Part shown: one piece after another, positions 3,001-63,999 of the stretch
Layout of the letters: each line of letters starts with the position of its first letter
Numbering within the stretch: the first letter of the stretch is position 1
Origin: Amphiscolops sp. MND2022
Lineage: Eukaryota
Reading direction: 5' to 3'
NCBI GenBank assembly: GCA_964187785.1
Contig: OZ076409.1
Coordinates: 7,132,001-7,196,000 of the forward strand
Length of the DNA: 64,000 nt
Made by a program: the position numbers and the translations under genes
Notes under the pieces: generated by a model
The model's database searches: none
Seen by the model: the letters and a program-made list of their open reading frames with translations, nothing else
What the model was told of the DNA's origin: nothing

Positions 3001-6000
3001 TTGTTGTGGGTTCGAATCCCACTCATAGCTAAATTTTACAAAACCAGATGATACCAAAAAGTCTGATCGGTTTTTTTTCAACGACATTTGCAATTTTTCG
3101 CAAAGTTTTTCACCTGAAGGGTTCCCTTTATGACTTTTTATCACTTTGATTTTAAAAAGGCATCGTTCAACTACTGAAGGTCCGTCTCTCTTTTGAGCTT
3201 CTGACACTGTGCAGTAATTTAGAAATTTCCTCTCTTACTTGAGATTTTTGTGTTTTAGGCTATAGAAAAGCGTGTTTCGATCCATACGGGTAGTTTTTGG
3301 CTATCTAAGGTTCTCAGAAGGCATCTTCCAACATATTTAAAAGAGATGAAAGTTTTCGAGCGTTGATAACATTACCGATTGTAAGCGTGTCCGTCTTGTC
3401 AATTTTTGTTTACTGATATTCGGTAAACATATATATTATAACACCTGATGATTGAACGCAACTAAAGACTGGAAAAATTCGTGTTGCAGTTTTATTTGAA
3501 CTTCCGAAGTTAGAAAAGAATCTGCAAAGAATCTCATCCGCGGTCTTCTTGTCAGAAACCTCAGTCCGAATGAAACCGGATCTCCTTTTTTAAACCTTGT
3601 GATTTTTTTACACTGAACACTTATCTCAACATTTTTTGTGCACTTCGAGGGAATTGAAACTAGTCCGACAGAAAACCACTACGAAAGTTGCCTTTGCTTT
3701 CATTATAATAGTATGGTATCCCAAAAAAGACAGGAAAAGACCTTTTCAGCTCGTCTAGTACCTGCCCTGCAAAACAATTCTTTCGTTTCCAGCTAATGGT
3801 AGCATTTCCTAGCAATCAGAGAAATAATTCGAAAAGATCCACGTAGAGTGTGCCACGTAGAGTGTATCCAGCGTTCTAACGTAGTTTTTCGTTTGATTAT
3901 CTGATTGTTTCAATAATTTTGAGGGTATCAAATCATTCGCTTTCAACTAATTGTAACATTTGTTTAGAGCATTTCCAAACTTCATTACAGTCCGGTCGGT
4001 GGTTGCTGCTAAAAGGTGTTATGTAAAAAGGTGTTAGGTAAAAAGTTATTTTCTTGTGGCTTTTTCAAAATTATTTTAATGCAATAGATTTTCTTGACTA
4101 ATTTTCCGGTAAAAAGTTCCCATTTTAGATTTGTACTCAATCCGAAACTCTTTTCCGGAATATTGTAGCAACGCCCTATTCTAATTGCATCATATTGAGT
4201 TGGTTTGCGTAGAGGAAGGACAAAAATTATTTGTGTAGATGGAGGAAAATCAGCAACTTTGCTGCATTTTTTGATACAAATTCTGTCAAAAAGCCACTTA
4301 GTTATATAATCCATTTAGATACTGTATAGTTACTGCAACTGTCACAAATTGCAGCACGTCCGCCTGCCAGTGAGTAGGTCGTGCTTTCGAACCCTGGCTG
4401 TCGCATGAAATCTTTTTGCAATAAGAGTGTGGCGCAAACTATCCCGCGCTTAGCAGGCGTCTTGTTATTTTCCGCCCACATAAATGGGGGAGGAAAATCA
4501 TGATCTGTGTTGCGTTTTTTTTCTCCACTTTTATTTACTCCATTTAGTGAACTAGTCACCGTGGCACAGTTGTTAGTGCGTCTTCGAATCTGTGCCTCCT
4601 CTTTAGTAAAACGCAATATAGTTCGGATATTACGTCAAAAATTCGGATATAGCGCAATATTTTCGAACCACCACCTCCTAAATTCGGATCGTATTGAAAA
4701 TTTATCGAAGGATGTTTTTTGAAAAAACCTAATATCAGACAAAAATGAAAATTTTGAACAGTCTCATAGTGCCGAAAAAATGTGAAATTCGGGACCATTT
4801 GGGATTTTTTAACATCCATTCTGTTGCAAAATTTCAAAAAAAATTGAAGGAGGACCCTTTGGTGTAATCAAAAAATTGTAGAAAAAAGTCTCCTAGTGCC
4901 AAAAAAATCTCAGTAAAAATCACCAAGATAGCCAAAGGGGATCCGTAGTAGGTTTTCAAGGTTCTGGACGTCGGATTTGTTTTGGACAGGGTTCTGACGT
5001 TTCCAGTATGTTTTCGACATCCGTAGTTCAGGTTGCATGAATGAACAAAAAAGTGGACCATACGTGGCTAAAAAACTACCCACTGAAAGAGCCGGGCACT
5101 TTTTTTCTTCAAAAGCGTCGATCAAAAAACTTTCATCTTTCTCCTTCTTCTATTAGTCTACAATTATACGTGATAGAGACCAGGTTATATCTACACATTA
5201 CAACACCGACTCTCTTCGATTTCGCAGAATATCAAACACCTCGAAGAACGAATTTGTCATGACAAAAGATCCTTTGGACCTTCAAAAACTCAAAACTGAA
5301 TCTGTTGTTTTTTTTCTGTTTTCGTAAATACCTTGGAGCAACAAATACGAAACAAGAGCAAAAGGTGTTATTGTGTCAAGAATTCTAAAGAGCAATCTTA
5401 ACGTTTTTGATTCCATGTCAGTACATGCCATCTAATTTCTCAGTAAAAGCCTTTTGAAAATCTTGGTTAGGGCACAAAAACGCAAATATCTCAATAATTA
5501 TAAAGAACCCGTTTTTGAGAATAATCAAAACAGTCGCAAAAGTGTCAAAACGTTGAAAGTAGGAACATTTGGGATTTCTTTGCTTCATTAAAAAAGATAT
5601 TGAAATCTTTGTTTTGAAAAGTGCAAACTAACGATGCCGCGCTCTGCTGTAATGTAAGGCTAAGTACTAAGAAAAGAGGTTTGTTACTAATTATAGCCTT
5701 CTGTACCGCCGTATAACACAACGTTTTTCTGACCTATGCAGAATCTCACTTTAACATGGTATAAAAATAATTGTCAAATGTTCGAAAAATCATTGGTCAT
5801 TGTGATCCGAGGTTTTTTCAATCACCGCATTTAGATGTCCGCCCGTTGTACTCATAACGATTTTCTTTTTTTTTCGACCACATATTGAGACTGAATGGTT
5901 CACTTGTTAAATATTTCGTTTTCGCAGTATGGCCCGCAATTTGACGTTGTGGTTAGTGTGTGTGCTTCGGAAGCATGTTGTTGTGGGTTCGAATCCCACT

Positions 6001-7576
6001 CATAGCTAAATTTTACAAAACCAGATGATACCAAAAAGTCTGATCGGTTTTTTTCAACGACATTTGCAATTTTTCGCAAAGTTTTTCACCTGAAGGGTTT
6101 CCTTTATGACTTTTTATCACTTTGATTTTAAAAAGGCATCGTTCAACTACTGAAGGTCCGTCTCTCTTTTGAGCTTCTGACACTGTGCAGTAATTTAGAA
6201 ATTTCCTCTCTTACTTGAGATTTTTGTGTTTTGAGCTATAGAAAAGCGTGTTTCGATCCATACGGGTAGTTTTTGGCTATCTAAGGTTCTCAGAAGGCAT
6301 CTTCCAACATATTTAAAAGAGATGAAAGTTTTCGAGCGTTGATAACATTACCGATTGTAAGCGTGTTCGTCTTGTCAATTTTTGTTTACTGATATTCGGT
6401 AAACATATATATTATAACACCTGATGATTGAACGCAACTAAAGACTGGAAAAATTCGTGTTGCAGTTTTATTTGAACTTCCGAAGTTAGAAAAGAATCTG
6501 CAAAGAATCTCATCCGCGGTCTTCTTGTCAGAAACCTCAGTCCGAATGAAACCGGATCTCCTTTTTTAAACCTTGTGATTTTTTTACACTGAACACTTAT
6601 CTCAACATTTTTTGTGCACTTCGAGGGAATTGAAACCAGTCCGACAGAAAACCACTACGAAAGTTGCCTTTGCTTTCATTATAATAGTATGGTATCCAAA
6701 AAAGACAGGAAAAGACCTTTTCAGCTCGTCTAGTACCTGCCCTGCAAAACAATTCTTTCGTTTCCAGCTAATGGTAGCATTTCCTAGCAATCAGAGAAAT
6801 AATTCGAAAAGATCCACGTAGAGTGTGCCACGTAGAGTGTATCCAGCGTTCTAACGTAGTTTTTCGTTTGATTATCTGATTGTTTCAATAATTTTGAGGG
6901 TATCAAATCATTCGCTTTCAACTAATTGTAACATTTGTTTAGAGCATTTCCAAACTTCATTACAGTCCGGTTGGTGGTTGCTGCTAAAAGGTGTTATGTA
7001 AAAAGGTGTTAGGTAAAAAGTTATTTTCTTGTGGCTTTTTCAAAATTATTTTAATGCAATAGATTTTCTTGACTAATTTTCCGGTAAAAAGTTCCCATTT
7101 TAGATTTGTACTCAATCCGAAACTCTTTTCCGGAATATTGTAGCAACGCCCTATTCTAATTGCATCATATTGAGTTGGTTTGCGTAGAGGAAGGACAAAA
7201 ATTATTTGTGTAGAGGGAGGAAAATCAGCATCTTTGCTGCATTTTTTGATACAAATTCTGTCAAAAAGCCACTTAGTTATATAATCCATTTAGATACTGT
7301 ATAGTTACTGCAACTGTCACAAATTGCAGCACGTCCGCCTGCCAGTGAGTAGGTCGTGCTTTCGAACCCTGGCTGTCGCATGAAATCTTTTTGCAATAAG
7401 AGTGTGGCGCAAACTATCCCGCGCTTAGCAGGCGTCTTGTTATTTTCCGCCCACGTAAATGGGGGAGGAAAATCATGATCTGTGTTGCGTTTTTTTTAAA
7501 CAAATTCTGCTAGATCTCCACTTTTATTTACTCCATTTAGTGAACTAGTCACCGTGGCACAGTTGTTAGTGCGTCT
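1..7576. repeat. Head-to-tail tandem triplication, unit ~2.98 kb (<1-1605, 1606-4583, 4584-7576)
   Basis: Near-identical ORF sets recur at offsets of 2978 (1031 to 4009) and 2975 (4009 to 6984). Homology ends at ...GTTAGTGCGTCT (1605, 4583, 7576). Confidence 0.95.
2965..3030 (+). mobile_element. tRNA-derived (SINE-head-like) cassette inside a HINE-like repeat; copies at ~1-55 and ~5942-6007
   Basis: A-box-like TGTGGTTAGTG, CTTCGGAAG loop and B-box GGTTCGAATCCC, but no proper acceptor stem. The host repeat ends with ...CCGTCTTGT (~421, ~3399). Confidence 0.6.
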
Positions 7577-25800: not shown

Positions 25801-28800
25801 GAATCATAAATGGCCCAGATTATGATCAAACTAATTTCATAAACTTTTGTTGCCCACGCGGGTTGCTGTGACACGCAATTTAGAGAAAAGTTTTCAGATA
25901 TTAAGAATAGCCTGCTGCTAAAACCTGCTGTTAGAGAAAGCTGCTAAACCTTGATGATTGCGAACTTCATTCACCCCTCATTCATTTCACCCCACTTTCA
26001 TTTCACCCGATATTGTAATTATACAAAAGCGTCTCACGTTAATTAACCAATTAGCATTTAAACTTTATGCCTACTGTCTTGGAGTTAGCATTGAAGTTTC
26101 TGGCCGGTAGGAAAGTGTTTGCCGAAGGCAAATGGAATAGAAAATTTTTGCTGAATATTAGCAACATCCAAAATTGTAGATTTTGATTGACAGAAAGTTT
26201 TTTTTCTCAGCTCCTTGTTCCGAAGTATTACAATTCCGAGAAGCTAAGTTTTCCGGCTCCGATTCTGTGGTTCACGTAGCAGCATCGTTTGCTTATCTAA
26301 TTGGTAATTAGAACCAAGACGCTTTTCTATTACCGCTAAGATTGAAATTGGGTGGCAATAATCATTTATCTGAGACACATTTGATAATTTTAGTTTGGGG
26401 TAAATGAACGTGGGGTGAAATGATATGGGGTGAAATGAACGTGGGGTGAAATGATATGGGGTGAAATGAACGTGGGGTGAAATGATATGGGGTGAAATGA
26501 ACGCGGGGTGAAATGATATGGGGTGAAATGAACGTGGGGTGAAATGATATGGGGTGAAATGATACTGAACCTCAATATACAATCATTGAAGTGTATTCTG
26601 CAAGCAAATAAACCAGCAAAACTTGTGAAAAGCTACGAAAACTTGTCTAAAACATTAGTTGCTTCTCATTTGAAGGAAATTGATTCGAGTAAAGCTACGG
26701 GACCCGACGGAATTCCCCCTGTTCTTCTCAAAGAGATGAATCGTGAACTTAGTCATTCTTTACACGCTATATTCAAGAAAATACAGCAAACGTGCGTTTA
26801 TCCAAAAATATGAAAGTGTGCAACGATTGTCCCAGTTCATAAGAAAAACTCTAAAATCGAAGTCACGAATTACCGGCCTGTGTCCTTGCTGTGTTGCGTG
26901 TCCAAAGTCTTTGAGCGATGCATTTATACTACATTGTACAAGTTTCTTCGACCAAAGTTCTCAAACAGTCAGCATGGCTTCAGAAAAGGGAGATCCTGTG
27001 TAACTCAGCTTTTACATTATCTTGATCTGGTATTCAAAGGAATTGACAGTGGGTCGAAGGTCGAAGTTGTTTATACTGATTTCGAGAAGGCCTTCGATAA
27101 AGTAGATCATGGTATTCTTCTGTCCAAACTCTTCAGACTTGGTGTTCGTGGTAAACTGTTACGACTTTTGGAGAGCTATTTATCGGAACGGACATTTAGA
27201 GTAAAAGTAGGTGATTCTTTATCGACTCCCCGTGTCGTAACCAGTGGTGTCCCTCAAGGATCGCTCCTCGGGCCCCTATTATTCTTGGTATTGATCAATG
27301 ACTTTGCAGACTGCTGTGAATTCACCTCCTGTTTCCTGTGCGCAGATGATGCAAAATTGGTTTACATCGGCAATGAACCATCAGTCATGCAGCTAGATAT
27401 CGACAATATCGCTCTCTGGTGTTTTGAGAACAATATGTTTCTCAACGCTGATAAATGCACCCACCTTTCAATGGGAAAATCTTGCGAATATTTCCTTGCC
27501 AGTGACAAGCTGAATCTCGTCCCTAAACAAAGAGATCTGGGTCTCATTGTAGAAGGTTCTCTAAAATGGCATGAGCACATTGCTGAGAAATGTCACAAGG
27601 CCTTATCAGTCCCAATGATGATTAAGCGGAACTGCGGTACAATAACACTCGAGTGCAAAAAGAATGTATATAAAACAATGGTTCTCCCGATTTTGAGCTA
27701 TGGTTCACCTTGTTGGTTCGCCAGCGTCGATGGACTCAAGCGGCTCGAGCGGGTACAGAAGTATGCTGTCATCTGGATGTTAGGGAAATGTAATTACAAA
27801 ACTGGCTTGCTGACGACAAGTTTGTTACCCGTTTCATTGTACCTCCAATTGAGTGACTTACTGACCCTCTCCAAATCCATGAATGGTCAATATGATATTA
27901 TAAACGAGAATTTCGTCCAGTTGCTTTCACCAAATAGAGAAACTAGGTACTCGACAACTATGCATTTCGTGGTGCCCTTGGTCAGACGAGCTCTGTGTGA
28001 AACGAATTTTTGGATACGTTGCCCTAAGCTAGTGAATAGATTACCGACGTCTGTCGATTTCTTCCAGCCGATTGGTCTCAAGGCAAGGTTGCTTCGATTT
28101 TTCTGGAATTATTTTCGAAACACTTATGACCCAGATGTTGCTCATACTTGGAGGTTTTGAATTCATCTCGTTTGATTGATTGTACAGTTGTAAATCGGAT
28201 CAGCTCTTGCCCGGTTAATAGATAGTATCACGTGTCGTGTGCTATCTCTACCAACAACATTCCAAAATGTAGTATCACTGTTAAATTTATCTCCTAGTAG
28301 TAATCACACTTGAATTCATCTCGTTGGATTGATAGTGCAGTGGTAAGTCGGATCAGCTCTTGCCCGGTTAATAGATAGTATCACGTGTCGTGTGCTATCT
28401 CTACCAACAACATTCCAAAATGTAGTATCACTGTTAAATTTATCTCCTAGTAGTAATCACACTTGAATTCATCTCGTTGGATTGATAGTGCAGTGGTAAG
28501 TCGGATCAGCTCTTGTCCGGTTGAAAGATAGTATCACGTGTCGTGTGCTATCTCTACAATCAACATTCCAAACTGTAGTATTCGTGTGAGCCCCACAGAT
28601 TTTGTCAACAACCCTAATTTCGACTCTCTGGTACCTTTCCTGGATTCTGTTGATGATGTTTGATGATGATCAAGATTCCTACGCTATTCTATGGCGATTT
28701 TGAGTTAGGGAGTGATCCCTTCAGGTCAACTGATCTTGAATTATGATGATGAGTTATGTGCGATTTTGTCTTCTTACTTTTGGTTTGCATATTTTTGTTA

Positions 28801-34800: not shown

Positions 34801-37800
34801 TTATTTATCATACTTTGGTTTTAGCTGCGAGCAAATCGAAAGACATAGACAAACAGGATATGACTTTTTCTGGAGATGTACCTTCAAGAGACGCTTCCGA
34901 GTGTTCAACTGAAGCTGATTTTCTACAGGGTTGGTTGAATCACTTCTTCACTTTTCATTTCAATAAACAACCCAAAGTTACAAAATCCAGAACTTTTTTC
35001 TGGCATTGCTTTATAATTTCGGCTCTCAACTCTGTTATTGTAGATTTGAAAACATTAAAAACTGACTAACCTTGACATGTCATGCAACCGAGGAGGGGGG
35101 AAAATTCTATGACCTTGAATTACTTTCTCCGAGCATTTGAGGATAACTCCCTTCGATGCTTCAGACGAAAAACGATATTTTAATGTGAAGACGAATCCCC
35201 ATGGATGTACACTGTACTGACACCCGATGGCATTCCATCCATGGCCAGTCTGGTTTTCCATCCATGGACAGTCTGGTCTTCCATCCATACCAGTCTGGCT
35301 CTCCATCCATGGCCAGTCTGGTTTTCCATCCATTCCAGTCTGGCTCTCCATCCATGGCCAGTCTGGTTTTCCATCCATGGCCAGTCTGGTTTTCCATCCA
35401 TACCCAGTCTGGTCTTCCATCCATACCAGTCTGGCTCTCCATCCATGGCCAGTCTGGTTTTCCATCCATGGCCAGTCTGGTTTTCCATCCATACCCAGTC
35501 TGGTCTTCCATCCATACCAGTCTGGCTCTCCATCCATGGCCAGCCTGGTTTTCCATCCATACCAGTCTGGCTCTCCATCCATGGCCAGTCTGGTTTTCCA
35601 TCCATGGCCAGTCTGGTTTTCCATCCATACCCAGTCTGGTCTTCCATCCATACCAGTCTGGCTCTCCATCCATGGCCAGTCTGGTTTTCCATCCATGGCC
35701 AGTCTGGTTTTCCATCCATACCCAGTCTGGTCTTCCATCCATACCAGTCTGGCTCTCCATCCATGGCCAGTCTGGTTTTCCATCCATGGCCAGTCTGGTT
35801 TTCCATCCATACCCAGTCTGGTCTTCCATCCATACCAGTCTGGCTCTCCATCCATGGCCAGCCTGGTTTTCCATCCATACCAGTCTGGCTCTCCATCCAT
35901 GGCCAGTCTGGTTTTCCATCCATTCCAGTCTGGCTCTCCATCCATGGCCAGTCTGGTTTTCCATCCATGGCCAGTCTGGTTTTCCATCCATACCCAGTCT
36001 GGTCTTCCATCCATACCAGTCTGGCTCTCCATCCATGGCCAGTCTGGTTTTCCATCCATGGCCAGTCTGGTTTTCCATCCATACCCAGTCTGGTCTTCCA
36101 TCCATACCAGTCTGGCTCTCCATCCATGGCCAGCCTGGTTTTCCATCCATACCAGTCTGGCTCTCCATCCATGGCCAGTCTGGTTTTCCATCCATTCCAG
36201 TCTGGCTCTCCATCCATGGCCAGTCTGGTTTTCCATCCATGGCCAGTCTGGTTTTCCATCCATACCCAGTCTGGTCTTCCATCCATACCAGTCTGGCTCT
36301 CCATCCATGGCCAGTCTGGTTTTCCATCCATGGCCAGTCTGGTTTTCCATCCATACCCAGTCTGGTCTTCCATCCATACCAGTCTGGCTCTCCATCCATG
36401 GCCAGCCTGGTTTTCCATCCATACCAGTCTGGCTCTCCATCCATGGCCAGTCTGGTTTTCCATCCATGGCCAGTCTGGTTTTCCATCCATACCCAGTCTG
36501 GTCTTCCATCCATACCAGTCTGGCTCTCCATCCATGGCCAGTCTGGTTTTCCATCCATGGCCAGTCTGGTTTTCCATCCATACCCAGTCTGGTTTTCCAT
36601 CCATACCAGTCTGGCTCTCCATCCATGGCCAGTCTGGTTTTCCATCCATACCAGTCTGGCTCTCCCTCCATGGCCAGCCTGGTTTTCCATCCATACCAGT
36701 CTGGCTCTCCATCCATCGCCAGTCTACATTCTGATCATAGAGAAAAATTATAGATTTTCTTGCAAAGTCATTTCATCTAATTCTGTAATATCTTGTTAGA
36801 AAATGCATTATATGACACTAACGTTTCAAGATTCTTGTAAGATTTGCAAACTCCAGCTGAAAACGATTCAAAAGATGCATTAATTTTTTACAAAATTCTT
36901 TCCAAAGTTGCATCGTTCAATTTAAGGAAATGATGTGGGAAAGTGCAGCTTATCAATCCAAAATATATGAAAGCAACAAATGGTACCATTTCTAAGGAAA
37001 ACTATTGATGTGTGTTTACAAGTTCGAAACCAAAATAAAACAGATATGATAGAAGTAAGATGACATTAAACTTTTGTATTTTTTAAGAACCTGTGACTGA
37101 TGAAAAGAAAGTGAAAGTAGAAACGAAGTCGCCAGTCGGAGGCAAGAAGGAATCGGAACCAAAGGAAGGGGCAACAAGCCGGGAACGGCATAAGTCGGCG
37201 CCATATCTAAGGCTCAAGAATAGCAAAAGCCGTCGAAGTCTCAAGTATTCTTTTACAGTACGAAAGTTGGGCCGAATTGGCAAACCGGGGGCCGCTAGCG
37301 CGCTAAAAGGGGGACCCGTTTGGATTTTTTAACATCCAAAAAAATGAAAAAAGTCTCACAATGCCGAAAAAACTGAAAAGGGGACCCTTTATTCTCTCCC
37401 GGTATTGTATGTTACGCCGAAAAAGAGGAAAAACGTTTTTAGTTCAGTTCGCTAGGCCAAATGGTTCAATTTGACACCATAAAATTTCGAAGAACTTTTA
37501 AGAACTATTTTGGTCAGTTCATGTGGATTGAAAAAAAAATTTAAAAAGAGTCACTATCATAGTCGCGTTTCACTTCATGAAGCGCCGACTAAAAAGGGAA
37601 AGTTTGAGCCGAGAGAAGAGCAATATGAAGAAAGAACAGAGGAATGATTTGAAAGGGGCCGAGATCGAGTCGGCCTATCAGAGGATGGTAGAAGAGCTGG
37701 CAGTCAGTGGTCACATGCTATCTACATGTTGGTTTGTACTTTTTAAAGTACCAACTTTGACTTATAAATACAGTAATAAGTTAATATACCTTCTTTTCAT

Positions 37801-58453: not shown

Positions 58454-59465
58454 GTGAGTTATTCTTATTTGATAGAAACCCAAATAGGATCCAAATTCAT
58501 GAGATTTCCATACAGTTCCATGGTTGGACCTTGCAATGGCTGACTTGAAGCTGTGCCTTCAAAGTGACTTGCACAAGGTCTGCCTGCTCAAAGTTGCTCT
58601 TTTTGTTTTGCTTTTCTTCGCCAAATGCGTAATTTTTTGTCGTTGACCATACCATTAATCTAGAGATGAAGGACTTGCTTGAGGACCAACAATGGTCAGT
58701 TGATAGAGATTCGAACCTGTCACCGACCAATACAGGACGAATGCTCTGACCACTACACCACCCTCCCAGGTATGGAATCGTATGGATTTGTACTCTAATG
58801 AAAAATATTTGAACTCTATTTTGAACCCGCACTCTTGTGGAGGAGAAGGAATAGCGTGTAAGGAATAACGTCCTCGATAGATAAAAGCATCATCGATATT
58901 TAACCCGGAATGGAGGTTGAAATTTCTGTATGCATCCAAAATTCTGGTGCTTAAACTTTAAACCGCAATATCTCCAAAACTATTCAAGTCCGACTAACGA
59001 TTATTGGTGCGTTCAAAAGAAGACAATCAGGGCTTCCATTTTGATATTTAAACGGCTGGGATAGGGGCCCGCTAGCTGCGTCGCACTGGCTCCGGACTTT
59101 GCACCGAAACTTTGCACTCGTGGTGTCTCTGGCTGCAATTCAGCTTTTCAGCTTTTCAGCTTGACATCAACTCAAAAATCCGTGAAAATGCGTGCAAAGC
59201 TATGTAATGTTGTCTGAAAATCTTATTCAAGAGTTTTCTTTACCATACGGTGGGCTGGTGCCTTTAGAAGTTTGCAGATCTTAAGTGGTGCAAATACGTA
59301 CCGTGGGTGCTAATTAGGGTTATAGGCATCAATTCTGCTTCCAAAAGATGTCAATTGAAACTGTTGCAACATCGTTGAAACCAACAATCAATACTTGAAA
59401 TATCATTATTTCCAAATTAGAATTGTAGCATGGGGCAAACTGCATGAAATTTACATATTTTTGTT

Positions 59466-60114
59466 TGTAACGTCAAGCTAGCGACGCACATACCAGAACT
59501 GGGACAGTACTTAGGTAGCCTGGACAGGAGACCAAAGTCTTACAACATGCCTAAATACTAGTTTTTCGTCCCTAAGGGTCTCCTGGGAACTTTTCCAAGA
59601 CGCCGTGGAGTCTCCTCATATTAGAGCTCCGTGGCGACGTGCCGGCACACTCCAAGTCCAGACACGTCCCACAAGCACGTAAAAACAGTCCTGAAAGCTT
59701 CCTGCGGTCCTACATACTCCCGAGGTCCGAAAACAGGGGTTTAGGCAGAGCACATCTCAATTAAGTGAATAACGTCTAAAATCAACACCTTCCAGTTTTA
59801 CCATTAACAAACACCTGAAAATCTGCCAAAATACTATAAAACAGCACTGGGGAGGCATTCTGAACAGTTCCCAGCGAGTTTTGAGCTTTGGGTTCAACTC
59901 ACGCAAAAATCGCACCTTCTTCTTCATCTCTTTTCCGGCTCATTCTTGCGATTTTCCGGTTTTGATGGCACAACACTGGGGTATTGGCTAGTTTCTGCTT
60001 CTGAATATCTTCTTTCGCTGCTTTTCGGTCTTCTCTGTGGTCTGGGGGGGTCTTTTTTTGTTGTGTGTGCTTCCTTTTCGATTTCAACGACCTGCTAGGT
60101 CGGCCAACGTTACA
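59466..60114 (-). repeat. 3' LTR (649 bp) of the right-hand Gypsy element
   Basis: TGTAACGT...ACGTTACA terminal inverted repeat. Polypurine tract GGGGAGGA lies immediately upstream on the - strand (60115-60122). Confidence 0.85.
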
Positions 60115-61320: not shown

Positions 61321-63999
61321 TTAAAAAGAAGGCAAGTGGCCTTTCGAGTGGCTATTCCATAGTGCCACAGGGACTCGGTCAAGCTTGGGCTTCACATGAT
61401 TGAGGTGTGTTCTGACCAGTGCTATCGACACATACACCCGATCATGTAGAACTATGTCGACGCTGGAATCAATTAAATGATCTCTCAACATTGAATACCA
61501 AGCTGGTAGCATGTTGATAGACCTTTCGGGGTCATAAATAGGCAGATGTATTCGGGTGATTTGTGCTCGCTCGAGCTTCTGCACCAGGTCTGTCAGGCAC
61601 AGATGTAGCACATCATGTAAAATAGGGTGTTTACTAGAGGCTCTGGTGACTAACAAAAACATCTCGTTGTTCCACGGCGCTGATGGTGATCTGGTGAGAT
61701 GTACGGCCTTTCCCACGGCTGGACGTAGCCGGAAGATCTCTTCCTGGCCGTATTCTCGAATAACGTAACGCGCCATTGCTGAGTTCGACAACAAGTCTAC
61801 CGGACAACATATTGCCACGGTACCTCGGGCTTGCAAAATGTCTGTTTCCTCGTAGGAGATCCATGACAGGTAATTCGGTTTGACCTTTGGGTGTGTCGTC
61901 AACAACTTACCCGTGACGGTGCTTTGATCGTCTAGACTTGGTGTGAGATGATCTAGAATGGCTTTACGATCTTGCCACACTGTTCTGCGCAAAGGCCTGT
62001 CTCCCAAGTTCGTGCAAGACCAATCATGAACTACAGAGAGTGCTTCCAGCACAGTCACCGGGTTCTCGAACGTATATGTGTATCTGTCCAGCAGGCGTAT
62101 TTTGGCTTGGCGACAGAAAGTAATAGCTAGTAGCTGTAACCAATGTTGACTAAGGAATTTCCCGCGATAGATATCTGCTAGATGGAAACACAGCGTGTCC
62201 TCGAACTCTACAAGTGTACGCAAGTTCTCTAAACAAATCAATAGAGTTCCTGGATTCACTGGTGATGTTTCGTCCAAGGAGGTGACCAATAGCCACCACC
62301 CAGCCGTTGGATGATACACATCTCCAGGAGGGGAGGTCACACCATATTGTTGCCACAGCTTCTGCGCGGGGATACAGCGTACCATTGCTACTTTCGTGTC
62401 TTCTGGCTCTATTTTTCCAAACACCATCGATGGTGGGAGTGGGGGAATGATAGCAGCTAACGTAAATTCCAATCCACTCTTGTCGTGGCACGACCACTCC
62501 TTGAACCGATAGGTGGGACAGTCTGAGGGTGATGTTCCTTGCATGGCTCTTAGTGTGGTTTCCAGGGGTGGAACCACACCTGGTCCAATGCTCGAGTACG
62601 TCTTTTCTATTGAAATTACAACATGATGTACTTGTGGAACATCCTGGTCCTTTGCGTGTATGGACCTGATTGTATGTTGTATATGGTCTTCGAATATTTC
62701 GGTGTCGGCTAAGTCAAGAGCAGGAGCGTCCACTCCCCGGGCCAATCGCTTGTCCGGTGTTTTCATTTCAACTAGGTTGACGCAACTACAGTTGCGGGAA
62801 CCACAGGTTCCACACCTGTATCGTGGTGCTCTGTTACGTCGTAGCTGATAAGGTGGGGCTTGTGAAGGGGTTGGTTGCTCCGCTTCTCGTTGCTCTGGCG
62901 ATATGCTTTCCGCTATGTTGGGTAATGTCATTGCACGTTCCAAAGTTTGAGACTGAGCTCTGGCTCTTACTCGGCCTCTCGCTCGCGTGTAAGGTCTGTG
63001 CGCTCTTGTAAGTGTTCTGCTTGATGAAGTGGTACTTCCTCTTCTACGACCTGGAGGTCTGCCTCTTGGTCTGCCTCTTCTAGTTGCAGTTCTCCCTGAT
63101 GAGGGTAACGTTTCCATGCTTTGACCGGGTTCTTGAATTTCTCTGTCAGTTCCTTCTTGGGGTTCGGCTTCCTCGGCAAGTTCTAGTCCTACCGAGCTAC
63201 CAGCTCGAGAACTGAACAGTGGGAAATTATTCAATGTATCGGTTAAAGCCGGGTTCGAAAGCAATGGTGCGGACGTTCCTGACGGTGAAGGTACCAAGCT
63301 TGGTGCTGGTTCAGGTAAGACTTCCTCTTGATCGGAATACAGCGGTTCTAGGTCATCAATATCAGGATGAACCATTGGTTGCTGTGGTTCTTCAATGGGT
63401 TGATCCATTGGTTCTCTGTCAGATTCCGACTCAGACGGATATCCAAAGTGACTGAATCGTCTACGTGGGATTCCTCGTTCCAGAGCGGACTGAGTACGTG
63501 TCTGAATCGTGCGCGGTGGGACAGGCGCGGTTGGTTCCATTTCGAACGATGCCTCCGGCAGTTGTTCTGGAAGAAATGAGTCTCGTGATATATCTGACGT
63601 TATCTCCTCATTGCTTTCTTCCACGTATGGATCTGCGACGATGGCTACATTCTGGTCTAACCCGAAGGGTTGATGTGCTGCCCAATCCCATGGCGCTGGC
63701 ACATGCTTCTTCAGACGCTCAAAATGAACCTTTTGACCTGTATCCAAAACGTACAATCTTCCATCTTGTAACACATCCGTGACCTTGTGAGGTCCACGCC
63801 AGGCACGAAGAAGTTTGCGGGTACCGCCCTTGGGGATTATGTGGCAAAAAACCCAAACGGCATCACCCACGGCGTGAGCTTTTGCCTTCAAATGCCTGTC
63901 AAACTTCTGTTTTTGTCGTATTTGCGCCTGATGAATGTTTCGGCGAACAAGCTCGTGGATTTCTTGTTGTCTGGCAAGTAGGTGCTCTACAATTTCTTC
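61321..63999 (-). CDS. pol C-terminus: integrase GPY/F region, acidic/Pro-rich linker, AT-hook, Cys cluster and two macrodomain-like repeats
   Basis: Frame is open to the window edge (EEIVEHLLARQQEIHELVRRNIHQAQIRQKQKFD...VGDAVWV...KLLRAWRGPHKV), with more than 890 codons without a stop. Confidence 0.85.
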   Translation of the reverse strand, partial: EEIVEHLLARQQEIHELVRRNIHQAQIRQKQKFDRHLKAKAHAVGDAVWVFCHIIPKGGTRKLLRAWRGPHKVTDVLQDGRLYVLDTGQKVHFERLKKHVPAPWDWAAHQPFGLDQNVAIVADPYVEESNEEITSDISRDSFLPEQLPEASFEMEPTAPVPPRTIQTRTQSALERGIPRRRFSHFGYPSESESDREPMDQPIEEPQQPMVHPDIDDLEPLYSDQEEVLPEPAPSLVPSPSGTSAPLLSNPALTDTLNNFPLFSSRAGSSVGLELAEEAEPQEGTDREIQEPGQSMETLPSSGRTATRRGRPRGRPPGRRRGSTTSSSRTLTRAHRPYTRARGRVRARAQSQTLERAMTLPNIAESISPEQREAEQPTPSQAPPYQLRRNRAPRYRCGTCGSRNCSCVNLVEMKTPDKRLARGVDAPALDLADTEIFEDHIQHTIRSIHAKDQDVPQVHHVVISIEKTYSSIGPGVVPPLETTLRAMQGTSPSDCPTYRFKEWSCHDKSGLEFTLAAIIPPLPPSMVFGKIEPEDTKVAMVRCIPAQKLWQQYGVTSPPGDVYHPTAGWWLLVTSLDETSPVNPGTLLICLENLRTLVEFEDTLCFHLADIYRGKFLSQHWLQLLAITFCRQAKIRLLDRYTYTFENPVTVLEALSVVHDWSCTNLGDRPLRRTVWQDRKAILDHLTPSLDDQSTVTGKLLTTHPKVKPNYLSWISYEETDILQARGTVAICCPVDLLSNSAMARYVIREYGQEEIFRLRPAVGKAVHLTRSPSAPWNNEMFLLVTRASSKHPILHDVLHLCLTDLVQKLERAQITRIHLPIYDPERSINMLPAWYSMLRDHLIDSSVDIVLHDRVYVSIALVRTHLNHVKPKLDRVPVALWNSHSKGHLPSF

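Follow-up and report, generated by a model that had tools for sequence, protein, structure and literature searches.

The last ~450 codons of the Pol frame of a Ty3/Gypsy-type long terminal repeat (LTR) retrotransposon from Amphiscolops sp. MND2022 encode a selected extension, in frame with the integrase, that we predict to contain two macrodomain folds in tandem, both derived from an ADP-ribosylhydrolase domain of the TARG1/OARD1 (C6orf130) type. The element occupies one end of a 64,000-nt stretch of DNA (hereafter the window, C1:7132001-7196000) within a 1.07-Gb assembly; residue numbers below refer to P0001, the 892-aa part of its open reading frame (ORF) that falls inside the window. An initial annotation made from the sequence had read this region as a Gypsy integrase fused to two degenerate TARG1-like macrodomains. 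The observation is confirmed, the peptides it quoted all being located in the minus-strand frame listed in Table 1, and its structural interpretation is supported. The 856-aa ORF it described is the TTG-started part of a frame that leaves the window and comes to ~3134 aa in all, and the span it assigned to the pair, 61438-62400, essentially covers the distal fold but misses 39 nt of the proximal core.

We modelled the last 453 aa with AlphaFold2 from a 15-row alignment. Mean confidence (predicted local distance difference test, pLDDT) was 55, with model residues 270-415, which correspond to P0001 709-855, reaching 70-91. When this distal region is compared with the PDB using Foldseek, the best match is TARG1 (4j5s_C, E 2.2e-9, target template-modelling (TM) score 0.85, root-mean-square deviation (rmsd) 2.1), with DarG, alphavirus and PARP14 macrodomains ranking below it. 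VIA-align superposes 137 of 141 residues on TARG1 (4j5r_A) at Z 18.6 and rmsd 2.0 Å, and gives Z 16.0 for DarG and 13.4 for Poa1p, in keeping with the TARG1/Poa1p-like character originally proposed. Matches in a library of viral structures are macro-domain proteins from RNA viruses and phages, none of them retroviral; in a protein atlas the closest clusters are phage proteins of ~150 aa, one with Pfam Macro on 14% of its members, which we treat as a lead only. Judged by its superposition on solved macrodomains, the distal region is predicted to be a macrodomain fold, with the three layers alpha/beta/alpha.

Homology to TARG1 is also detectable at the sequence level, where it is weak (~14% identity) but consistent. 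A profile built from 30 relatives of the distal fold and run against PDB sequences returns TARG1 as its five best matches (E 0.016-0.022), and a larger profile (A2) aligns almost the full TARG1 chain at E 0.045, TARG1 chains again being the five best. The closest sequence relative that we found is a canonical TARG1 homologue carried by another retroelement of the same genome (hhalign E 2.6e-6, probability 88.6%; BLASTP 1e-4). Note that matches to the PDB needed deeper, domain-level alignments: a 15-row profile (A1) gave no match at E<=10, and single-sequence searches with the ORF and its two domain pieces gave nothing useful. Neither did Pfam Macro (PF01661, cut-off 22 bits) match P0001, either domain piece or any of the 30 relatives at E<=10, or PADLOC the ORF and the two pieces at the same threshold. 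Since ordinary domain annotation with Pfam misses the module, similar modules may go unseen in other genomes.

For the proximal fold we obtained a separate model (m1c4adc89a4b0; P0001 380-699, 43-row alignment) with pLDDT >90 across model residues 75-290, the beta-rich extension and the helices that flank the core being modelled as confidently as the core itself. All eight of the best Foldseek matches are TARG1 (best E 7.9e-5, target TM 0.63). A scan of 48,161 chains that is independent of Foldseek likewise places TARG1 first (Z 10.9, rmsd 3.2, 117 of 152 residues, model 142-260), followed by a Bacteroides macro-like protein (Z 10.7), DarG (10.4 and 9.5) and Poa1p (9.3). Six chains reach Z>=8, each a macrodomain protein or a design on that scaffold, and the best 50 rows are mostly macrodomains or the related aminopeptidase N-domain. 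The proximal region, too, is therefore modelled as a macrodomain fold, so that structure prediction plus Foldseek, the check suggested at the outset, recovers macro folds in both regions with TARG1 ranked first.

The two folds resemble one another beyond chance. A repeated skeleton upstream of the distal fold had been noted initially, and hhalign, run on trimmed alignments of 33 (proximal) and 30 (distal) rows, aligns the regions over 121 columns with E 7.8e-5 and a probability of 61%. It pairs RCI(T/P)A.L with CCP(A/V)DL, LLVTS with LLVTR, LCLENL with LCLTDL, and the D.YRGK loop with the DPER loop, the register of the latter being CFHLADIYRGK over IHLPIYDPERS. Two gaps interrupt the alignment, the proximal fold being without the segment that follows loop 1. 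We considered independent capture of the proximal fold and rejected it in favour of duplication because the motif skeleton is common to both folds; we read the proximal fold as having arisen by internal duplication of the distal fold and as having been reduced by loss of the loop-1/helix-1 segment.

What has become of the TARG1 active site? The catalytic residues of TARG1 are Lys84, in the LITK motif, and Asp125, in the GCGLD loop, a numbering consistent with the offset of the printed chain. HMMER alignments place Arg786 (LLVTRAS) beneath Lys84 and DPERS beneath GCGLD, while hhalign places the Ser of the proximal LLVTS beneath the distal Arg; the replacement of LITK by LVTR or LVTS and the loss of the Gly-rich loops thus hold up as first described. 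Asp720 (TD.LQ) falls beneath Asp20 of the TARG1 GDLF motif, again by HMMER. When hhalign is run against the TARG1 homologue of the other retroelement, AICCPVDLLSNSAMA aligns with AHCVSSDLSMSAGIA, LLVTRAS with NLVTKAN, and IHLPIYDPERS with INLPQIGCGLD. Loop 1, MGAGIA in TARG1, reads SNSAMA, of which Ser740 and Ala741 are conserved. In ungapped alignments, whose loop register is provisional, Ser827 lies beneath Asp125 and Asp823-Pro-Glu-Arg beneath Gly-Cys-Gly-Leu, which would put an acid within two residues of the Asp125 position.

Conserved CPxDL..SA and DPER motifs stand in place of the Gly loops, and together with TD.LQ, TRAS and LHDR they make up the conserved motifs of the distal fold. In the trimmed alignment we count D720 in 22/24 relatives, P733 in 25/27, D735 in 24/27, S740 in 24/26, A741 in 24/25, R786 in 27/30, D823 in 28/29 and R826 in 26/29, so that the best-conserved polar residues of the fold coincide with former pocket positions. 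Arg occupies the Lys84 position in the window copy as well as in those 27 relatives. A single relative, P0115, has Lys (LLITKAS), combined with a DAER loop, which implies that the loop change preceded, or was separate from, the change of the lysine. The proximal fold has Ser where TARG1 has the Lys, many relatives having Ala there, and its D.YRGK loop is invariant in A1. That the pair is catalytically dead, as initially proposed, is at most a possible reading of these replacements, the conserved pocket residues and the Lys of P0115 being caveats. At P544, V734 and L842 (62362-62385, 61792-61809 and 61474-61476), three otherwise highly conserved sites of the module, the window copy itself departs from the majority residue.

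To what extent is the module maintained? A word-indexed search with the last 453 aa found 51 relatives, down to 40% identity and several with reverse transcriptase (RT) and integrase domains; a HMMER profile search found 426, some just 27-40% identical to the window copy, the best 150 of the 426 all being close fragments. Searching the genome of the element itself with these 453 aa yielded 4576 first-look candidates (each search for the clade gives 3,400-6,900), of which 93 were scored. These are 89-100% identical to the query; 36 lie in open frames of at least 3000 aa and four have stops besides the natural one. Several diverged lineages of the clade in the same genome have open frames of ~2425, 3134-3141, 3193, 3220 and 3245-3303 aa. 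In all, the extension is retained in at least four divergent lineages, with the module kept at ~30-40% identity. For P0115 and P0058, relatives that lie on short contigs, the best matches in this genome reach 33% and 44-45%, from which we conclude that the module exists outside this genome too. A scan for three of the motifs found them in 19 of 21 module-holding loci of this genome, always with Arg, in lineages down to ~33% identity; three further loci in the scan were flank stretches of elements without the module.

We then estimated dN/dS, the ratio of non-synonymous to synonymous divergence, by the Nei-Gojobori method for nine pairs drawn from seven copies, each with a long open frame, the alignment comprising thirteen loci. 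The ratio for the distal fold is 0.06-0.11 in eight of the nine pairs (dS 0.16-1.14), the ninth having four non-synonymous and no synonymous differences, too few to use. All nine pairs give 0.07-0.24 in the proximal fold and 0.10-0.53 in the linker, and the integrase end gives 0.01-0.07 in the seven pairs with dS >= 0.29. Both folds are under purifying selection, and neutral decay is excluded; the copies and ratios that had been named as a check on the initial annotation thus speak for a maintained extension. dS between the same two copies varies up to ~70-fold across neighbouring regions (61321-63999 against L006, L009, L013, L016 and L019); between L001 and L016, for example, the linker has a dS of 0.015 and the distal fold one of 1.04. 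Such swings imply recombination between lineages, so that individual copies are mosaics of diverged lineages.

The same genome also holds TARG1-type domains of canonical sequence in other retroelements. Searching the genome with Pfam Macro, we obtained 24 matches at E<=0.01, three of them strong and with the appearance of host genes; most others score 25-30 bits and lie within long open frames, and we read ten loci. In L046-L048 an integrase tail and a long linker are followed by a C-terminal domain with AHCVSSDLSMSAGIA, LVTK and GCGLD (human TARG1, E 3e-27). The full frame of this family, L055:772-6546 (G000:C12), is a Ty3/Gypsy-like pol ORF of 1925 aa with protease, a weak dUTPase match, RT, RNase H and integrase, then a linker of ~500 aa and, at 1744-1847, a Macro domain of 23-25 bits. 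L049, L051 and L052 (L052:1-2538; G000:C1, C2 and C3), a third family, instead carry a domain with LITK and GCGVD (TARG1 E 1.9e-22), which follows RNase H and precedes the zinc-binding domain of the integrase. Pfam Macro recognises these canonical retroelement domains at 23-27 bits. Like the window family, both types have a TARG1-type fold translated within Pol, and the L055 type shares its C-terminal position past integrase and a long linker; unlike it, they have a single, Pfam-positive domain that keeps both Lys and Asp. On this comparison, at least three pol architectures of this genome have taken up a TARG1-type domain, and the window family has the derived, duplicated form with Arg for Lys.

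There are a number of scenarios for what the module does. Because its polar residues are best conserved in the pocket loops and at the adenine-side Asp, we suggest that the distal fold still works through its pocket, and we favour, at a probability of roughly 45%, a pocket-based binding module for ADP-ribose or a close relative that links integrase to ADP-ribosylated partners. Here the retroelements of this genome would have taken a TARG1/OARD1-type domain into pol, and duplication would have yielded an accessory module comprising, in order, an AT-hook-like basic stretch, a Cys knuckle, the reduced macro-like fold and the full macrodomain fold. The distal fold, where Arg has replaced Lys84 and DPER has replaced GCGLD, would act on its ligand without the lysine chemistry of TARG1. 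As a reader it could provide integrase, or the pre-integration complex, with a link to ADP-ribosylated partners, be they proteins, chromatin or the ends of nucleic acids; the AT-hook and knuckle would contribute DNA contact and the proximal fold would serve as a structural partner. What the data show is fold, homology, duplication, selection and altered residues; the ligand, binding over hydrolysis and any effect on integration are inferred. The presence of canonical TARG1 homologues in the pol of two other families shows that an activity directed at ADP-ribose is useful to such elements.

Several observations weigh against this proposal. The main argument concerns loop 2: in known macrodomains its Gly backbone grips the diphosphate, and here it has become Asp-Pro-Glu-Arg, acidic and proline-containing, which could abolish ADP-ribose binding. 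The register of loop 1 differs by two residues between HMMER (A2) and hhalign (retroelement homologue), and the pairs behind the dN/dS estimates share ancestry and come from recombinant mosaics. Nor do insertion sites reveal targeting at the sequence level: mapping their preference, as had been suggested, turned up no motif common to 17 reconstructed sites, and GC content there is slightly low, at 0.35 versus 0.39 for the window. Finally, given a conserved acid close by, some hydrolysis could persist despite the change from Lys to Arg.

This last point leads to a reading that we consider rather unlikely, namely that the distal fold has remained enzymatic and hydrolyses ADP-ribosyl (or related) groups at a rebuilt site (Arg786, Asp823/Glu825, Arg826, His818/His852); it would strip host ADP-ribosylation from element proteins or cDNA/RNA ends as a counter-defence, in the manner of viral macrodomains and DarG. 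The residues conserved best among the polar ones sit at TARG1 catalytic positions, with an acid within two residues of the place of Asp125; P0115 retains the Lys; the nearest structural neighbours, TARG1, DarG and Poa1p, are all hydrolases; and sister families with fully canonical TARG1 sites indicate that hydrolysis is evidently useful. However, Arg, which is present in 27 of 30 relatives and in all 19 motif-matching loci of this genome, is unable to form the lysyl adduct of the TARG1 mechanism, and both Gly-rich loops have been replaced. If, on the other hand, both folds have abandoned nucleotide chemistry, the module might be a scaffold for docking protein or nucleic acid, in intasome or capsid assembly or on a host tethering factor, its conserved loops forming the interaction surface. 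The failure of Pfam Macro to recognise either fold, the acidic loop 2, the missing loop-1/helix-1 segment and Ser/Ala at the Lys position of the proximal fold, and the company of an AT-hook-like motif and a Cys knuckle, typical for docking regions, would all fit. We nonetheless regard it as unlikely, as the distal fold keeps its adenine-side Asp and still has a basic residue where TARG1 has Lys84, and conservation, as read from the alignment, appears to cluster on the pocket loops and not across the surface.

That the resemblance is an artefact of modelling or chance, or the extension decaying and non-functional, is barely credible. The blank Pfam and single-sequence PDB searches and the low mean pLDDT of the first model might be cited for it, but two structure searches with different aligners agree, two profiles match TARG1, hhalign matches a bona fide TARG1 homologue, dN/dS is ~0.1, and the module is retained at ~30-40% identity, including in records whose best match here is 33-45%. 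These results already contradict it. Returning to the binding module, we can also sketch a larger scenario, although we hold it to be distinctly doubtful: LTR retrotransposons of this genome would repeatedly have built host-type TARG1 into Pol, host ADP-ribosylation of element proteins or cDNA/RNA ends would genuinely restrict retrotransposition, and the most successful clade, with thousands of copies, would have made of it a tandem pseudo-enzyme reader that guides integrase, with AT-hook and knuckle, to chromatin that is ADP-ribosylated, for example where DNA has been damaged. If true, this would be a new principle of integration tethering beside chromodomains.

Insertion sites show how the family integrates. 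We took both ends for 20 family copies (L056-L095), 18 of which could be evaluated. LTR elements usually make target duplications of 4-6 bp; here the duplication is an exact 3 bp in 17 of the 18, and none of the 18 has one of 4 or 5 bp. In the window copy (59461-59465 and the 5' flank) two of the three bases match. The 3-bp duplications demonstrate integration that is genuine and recent. With regard to targeting at the level of chromatin, the sites provide no evidence for or against.

The finding joins two themes. Macrodomains are weapons of viruses against PARP-based immunity, and integrase C-terminal add-ons are a known means by which LTR elements choose landing sites, as in the tethering of Ty5 to Sir4 and of MLV to BET proteins. 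Here a TARG1-type fold, present twice in tandem, is fused to the integrase of a Gypsy family that has dozens of long open copies; the pair is conserved and under selection, and canonical sister forms in the same genome add to its interest. TARG1 and DarG, of the TARG1-like or ALC1-like class of macrodomains, share the fold with both domains (distal fold, Z 18.6 to TARG1 and 16.0 to DarG; proximal fold, 10.9 and 10.4), and TARG1 shares with the distal fold the Asp at the Asp20 position, a domain length of ~145 aa and detectable homology; they differ at Lys84 (Arg distally, Ser/Ala proximally), GCGLD (DPERS) and MGAGIA (SNSAMA), and they stand alone or with DarT, whereas the present module is a tandem fused to a retroelement Pol, known from sequence and models. 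Viral macrodomains are among the structural matches; those of RNA viruses (alphavirus, coronavirus, rubella) are of the MacroD type and reside in replicase polyproteins. The two conserved folds suggest that these retrotransposons handle host ADP-ribosylation in much the way of some RNA viruses. The family should also be amenable to work on whether retroelements are restricted by ADP-ribosylation, and would show a hydrolase turning pseudo-enzyme inside a mobile element.

Chromodomains of chromoviruses and other tethering modules resemble the window module in being reader-type accessories after the integrase C-terminal domain; where chromoviruses have a chromodomain, this element has the macro pair. 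We detected no Chromo family at E<=10 with Pfam in P0001 and P0202 (3132 aa), so the element does not class as a chromovirus. We came across no published LTR-retrotransposon integrase with a macrodomain attached to it, which is weak evidence given that subscription journals lay mostly outside our coverage. Fusions of Chromo and PHD domains with transposable-element domains are described in bioRxiv 10.1101/2021.11.30.470311, whose passages on such fusions contain no macro fusions. A review (PMC4977317, citing Basta et al. 2009) mentions fish epsilon-like endogenous retroviruses that, like this element, acquired a macrodomain, in their case in separate extra ORFs for macro domain proteins.

The element itself is a Ty3/Gypsy-type LTR retrotransposon of ~15 kb, as shown by its LTRs, a sequence like a primer-binding site and a polypurine tract, the order of protease, RT, RNase H and integrase, and the target-site duplication. 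Upstream of P0001 the frame continues without interruption for 2240 aa in adjoining DNA to an ATG start, which gives a single gag-pol ORF of ~3134 aa; along those 2240 aa Pfam detects successively a weak zinc knuckle, an aspartyl protease, RT and RNase H, and then the H2C2 finger and the core (rve) of the integrase. The 5' LTR lies outside the window at C1:7205745-7206385, 14 kb upstream of the 3' LTR, and is followed by a primer-binding-site-like TGGCGCCCC. The LTRs, of the TG..CA type, are identical at 640 of 641 positions (99.84%). The insertion is very recent, given near-identical LTRs. Separately, we note that the 5' LTR has ~70 nt following TGTAACGT that are missing from the 3' LTR, that the leader between 5' LTR and ATG is ~3 kb long, and that the ORF begins with ~500 aa, partly coiled-coil-like, ahead of the Gag zinc knuckle.

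Table 1. Features of the element inside the window, with matching residues of P0001.
Feature	Position	Strand	P0001 residues	Remarks
3' LTR	59466..60106	-		641 nt, termini TGTAACGT...ACGTTACA; 59466 is the exact start of similarity to another copy
Polypurine tract	60107..60114	-		GGGGAGGA, read from the sequence; immediately 5' of the 3' LTR in element orientation
Pol frame tail	61321..63999	-	1-892	last 892 codons plus stop; part of a single gag-pol ORF that extends past the window end
C-terminal tail	61324..61377	-		18 residues following ...KPKLD
Distal macrodomain fold (predicted)	61435..61875	-	709-855	TARG1/DarG-like
Distal motifs			719-723, 731-736, 782-788, 822-827, 850-854	TDILQ, CCPVDL, LLVTRAS, YDPERS, VLHDR, respectively
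Proximal fold (predicted)	61933..62640	-	454-689	beta-rich N-terminal extension, reduced macro-like core, C-terminal helices
Proximal core	62083-62439	-	521-639	
Proximal motifs			539-546, 570-576, 609-614, 634-639	MVRCIPAQ, LLVTSLD, DIYRGK, IRLLDR, respectively
Cys knuckle	62782..62820	-		YRCGTCGSRNCSC, CX2CX5CXC; basic stretch YQLRRNRAPRY just before
Linker	62863..63699	-	101-379	low complexity: acidic, Ser/Pro-rich, then basic
AT-hook-like motif	63037-63081	-		RRGRPRGRPPGRRRG, inside the linker
Integrase C-terminal end	63700..63999	-	1-100	includes WRGPHKV; highly constrained

The integrase end is presumably the part that goes by the label GPY/F. The initial annotation had placed the macro folds where chromoviruses carry their chromodomain. 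They do lie C-terminal to integrase but do not abut it, the linker of ~280 aa, the AT-hook-like motif and the Cys knuckle intervening. RRGRPRGRPPGRRRG, which resembles the AT-hook consensus, is conserved among the homologues that extend this far (A1 alignment columns 150-175), and the columns of the Cys knuckle are nearly invariant in A1, with low model confidence (pLDDT ~58). The 18-residue C-terminal tail is common to four of the 20 loci read; in most other copies the stop follows directly after KLD.

Elsewhere in the window, 35233-36725 is a 1.5-kb tandem array (periods of 91, 227 and 272 nt, ~93% matches) without stop codons in any of the six frames, which produces six spurious ORFs of >500 aa. 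At 26814-28160 (+), a 448-aa open frame matches RVT_1 (E 4.5e-27) and belongs to a separate retroelement fragment, unrelated to the macro module.

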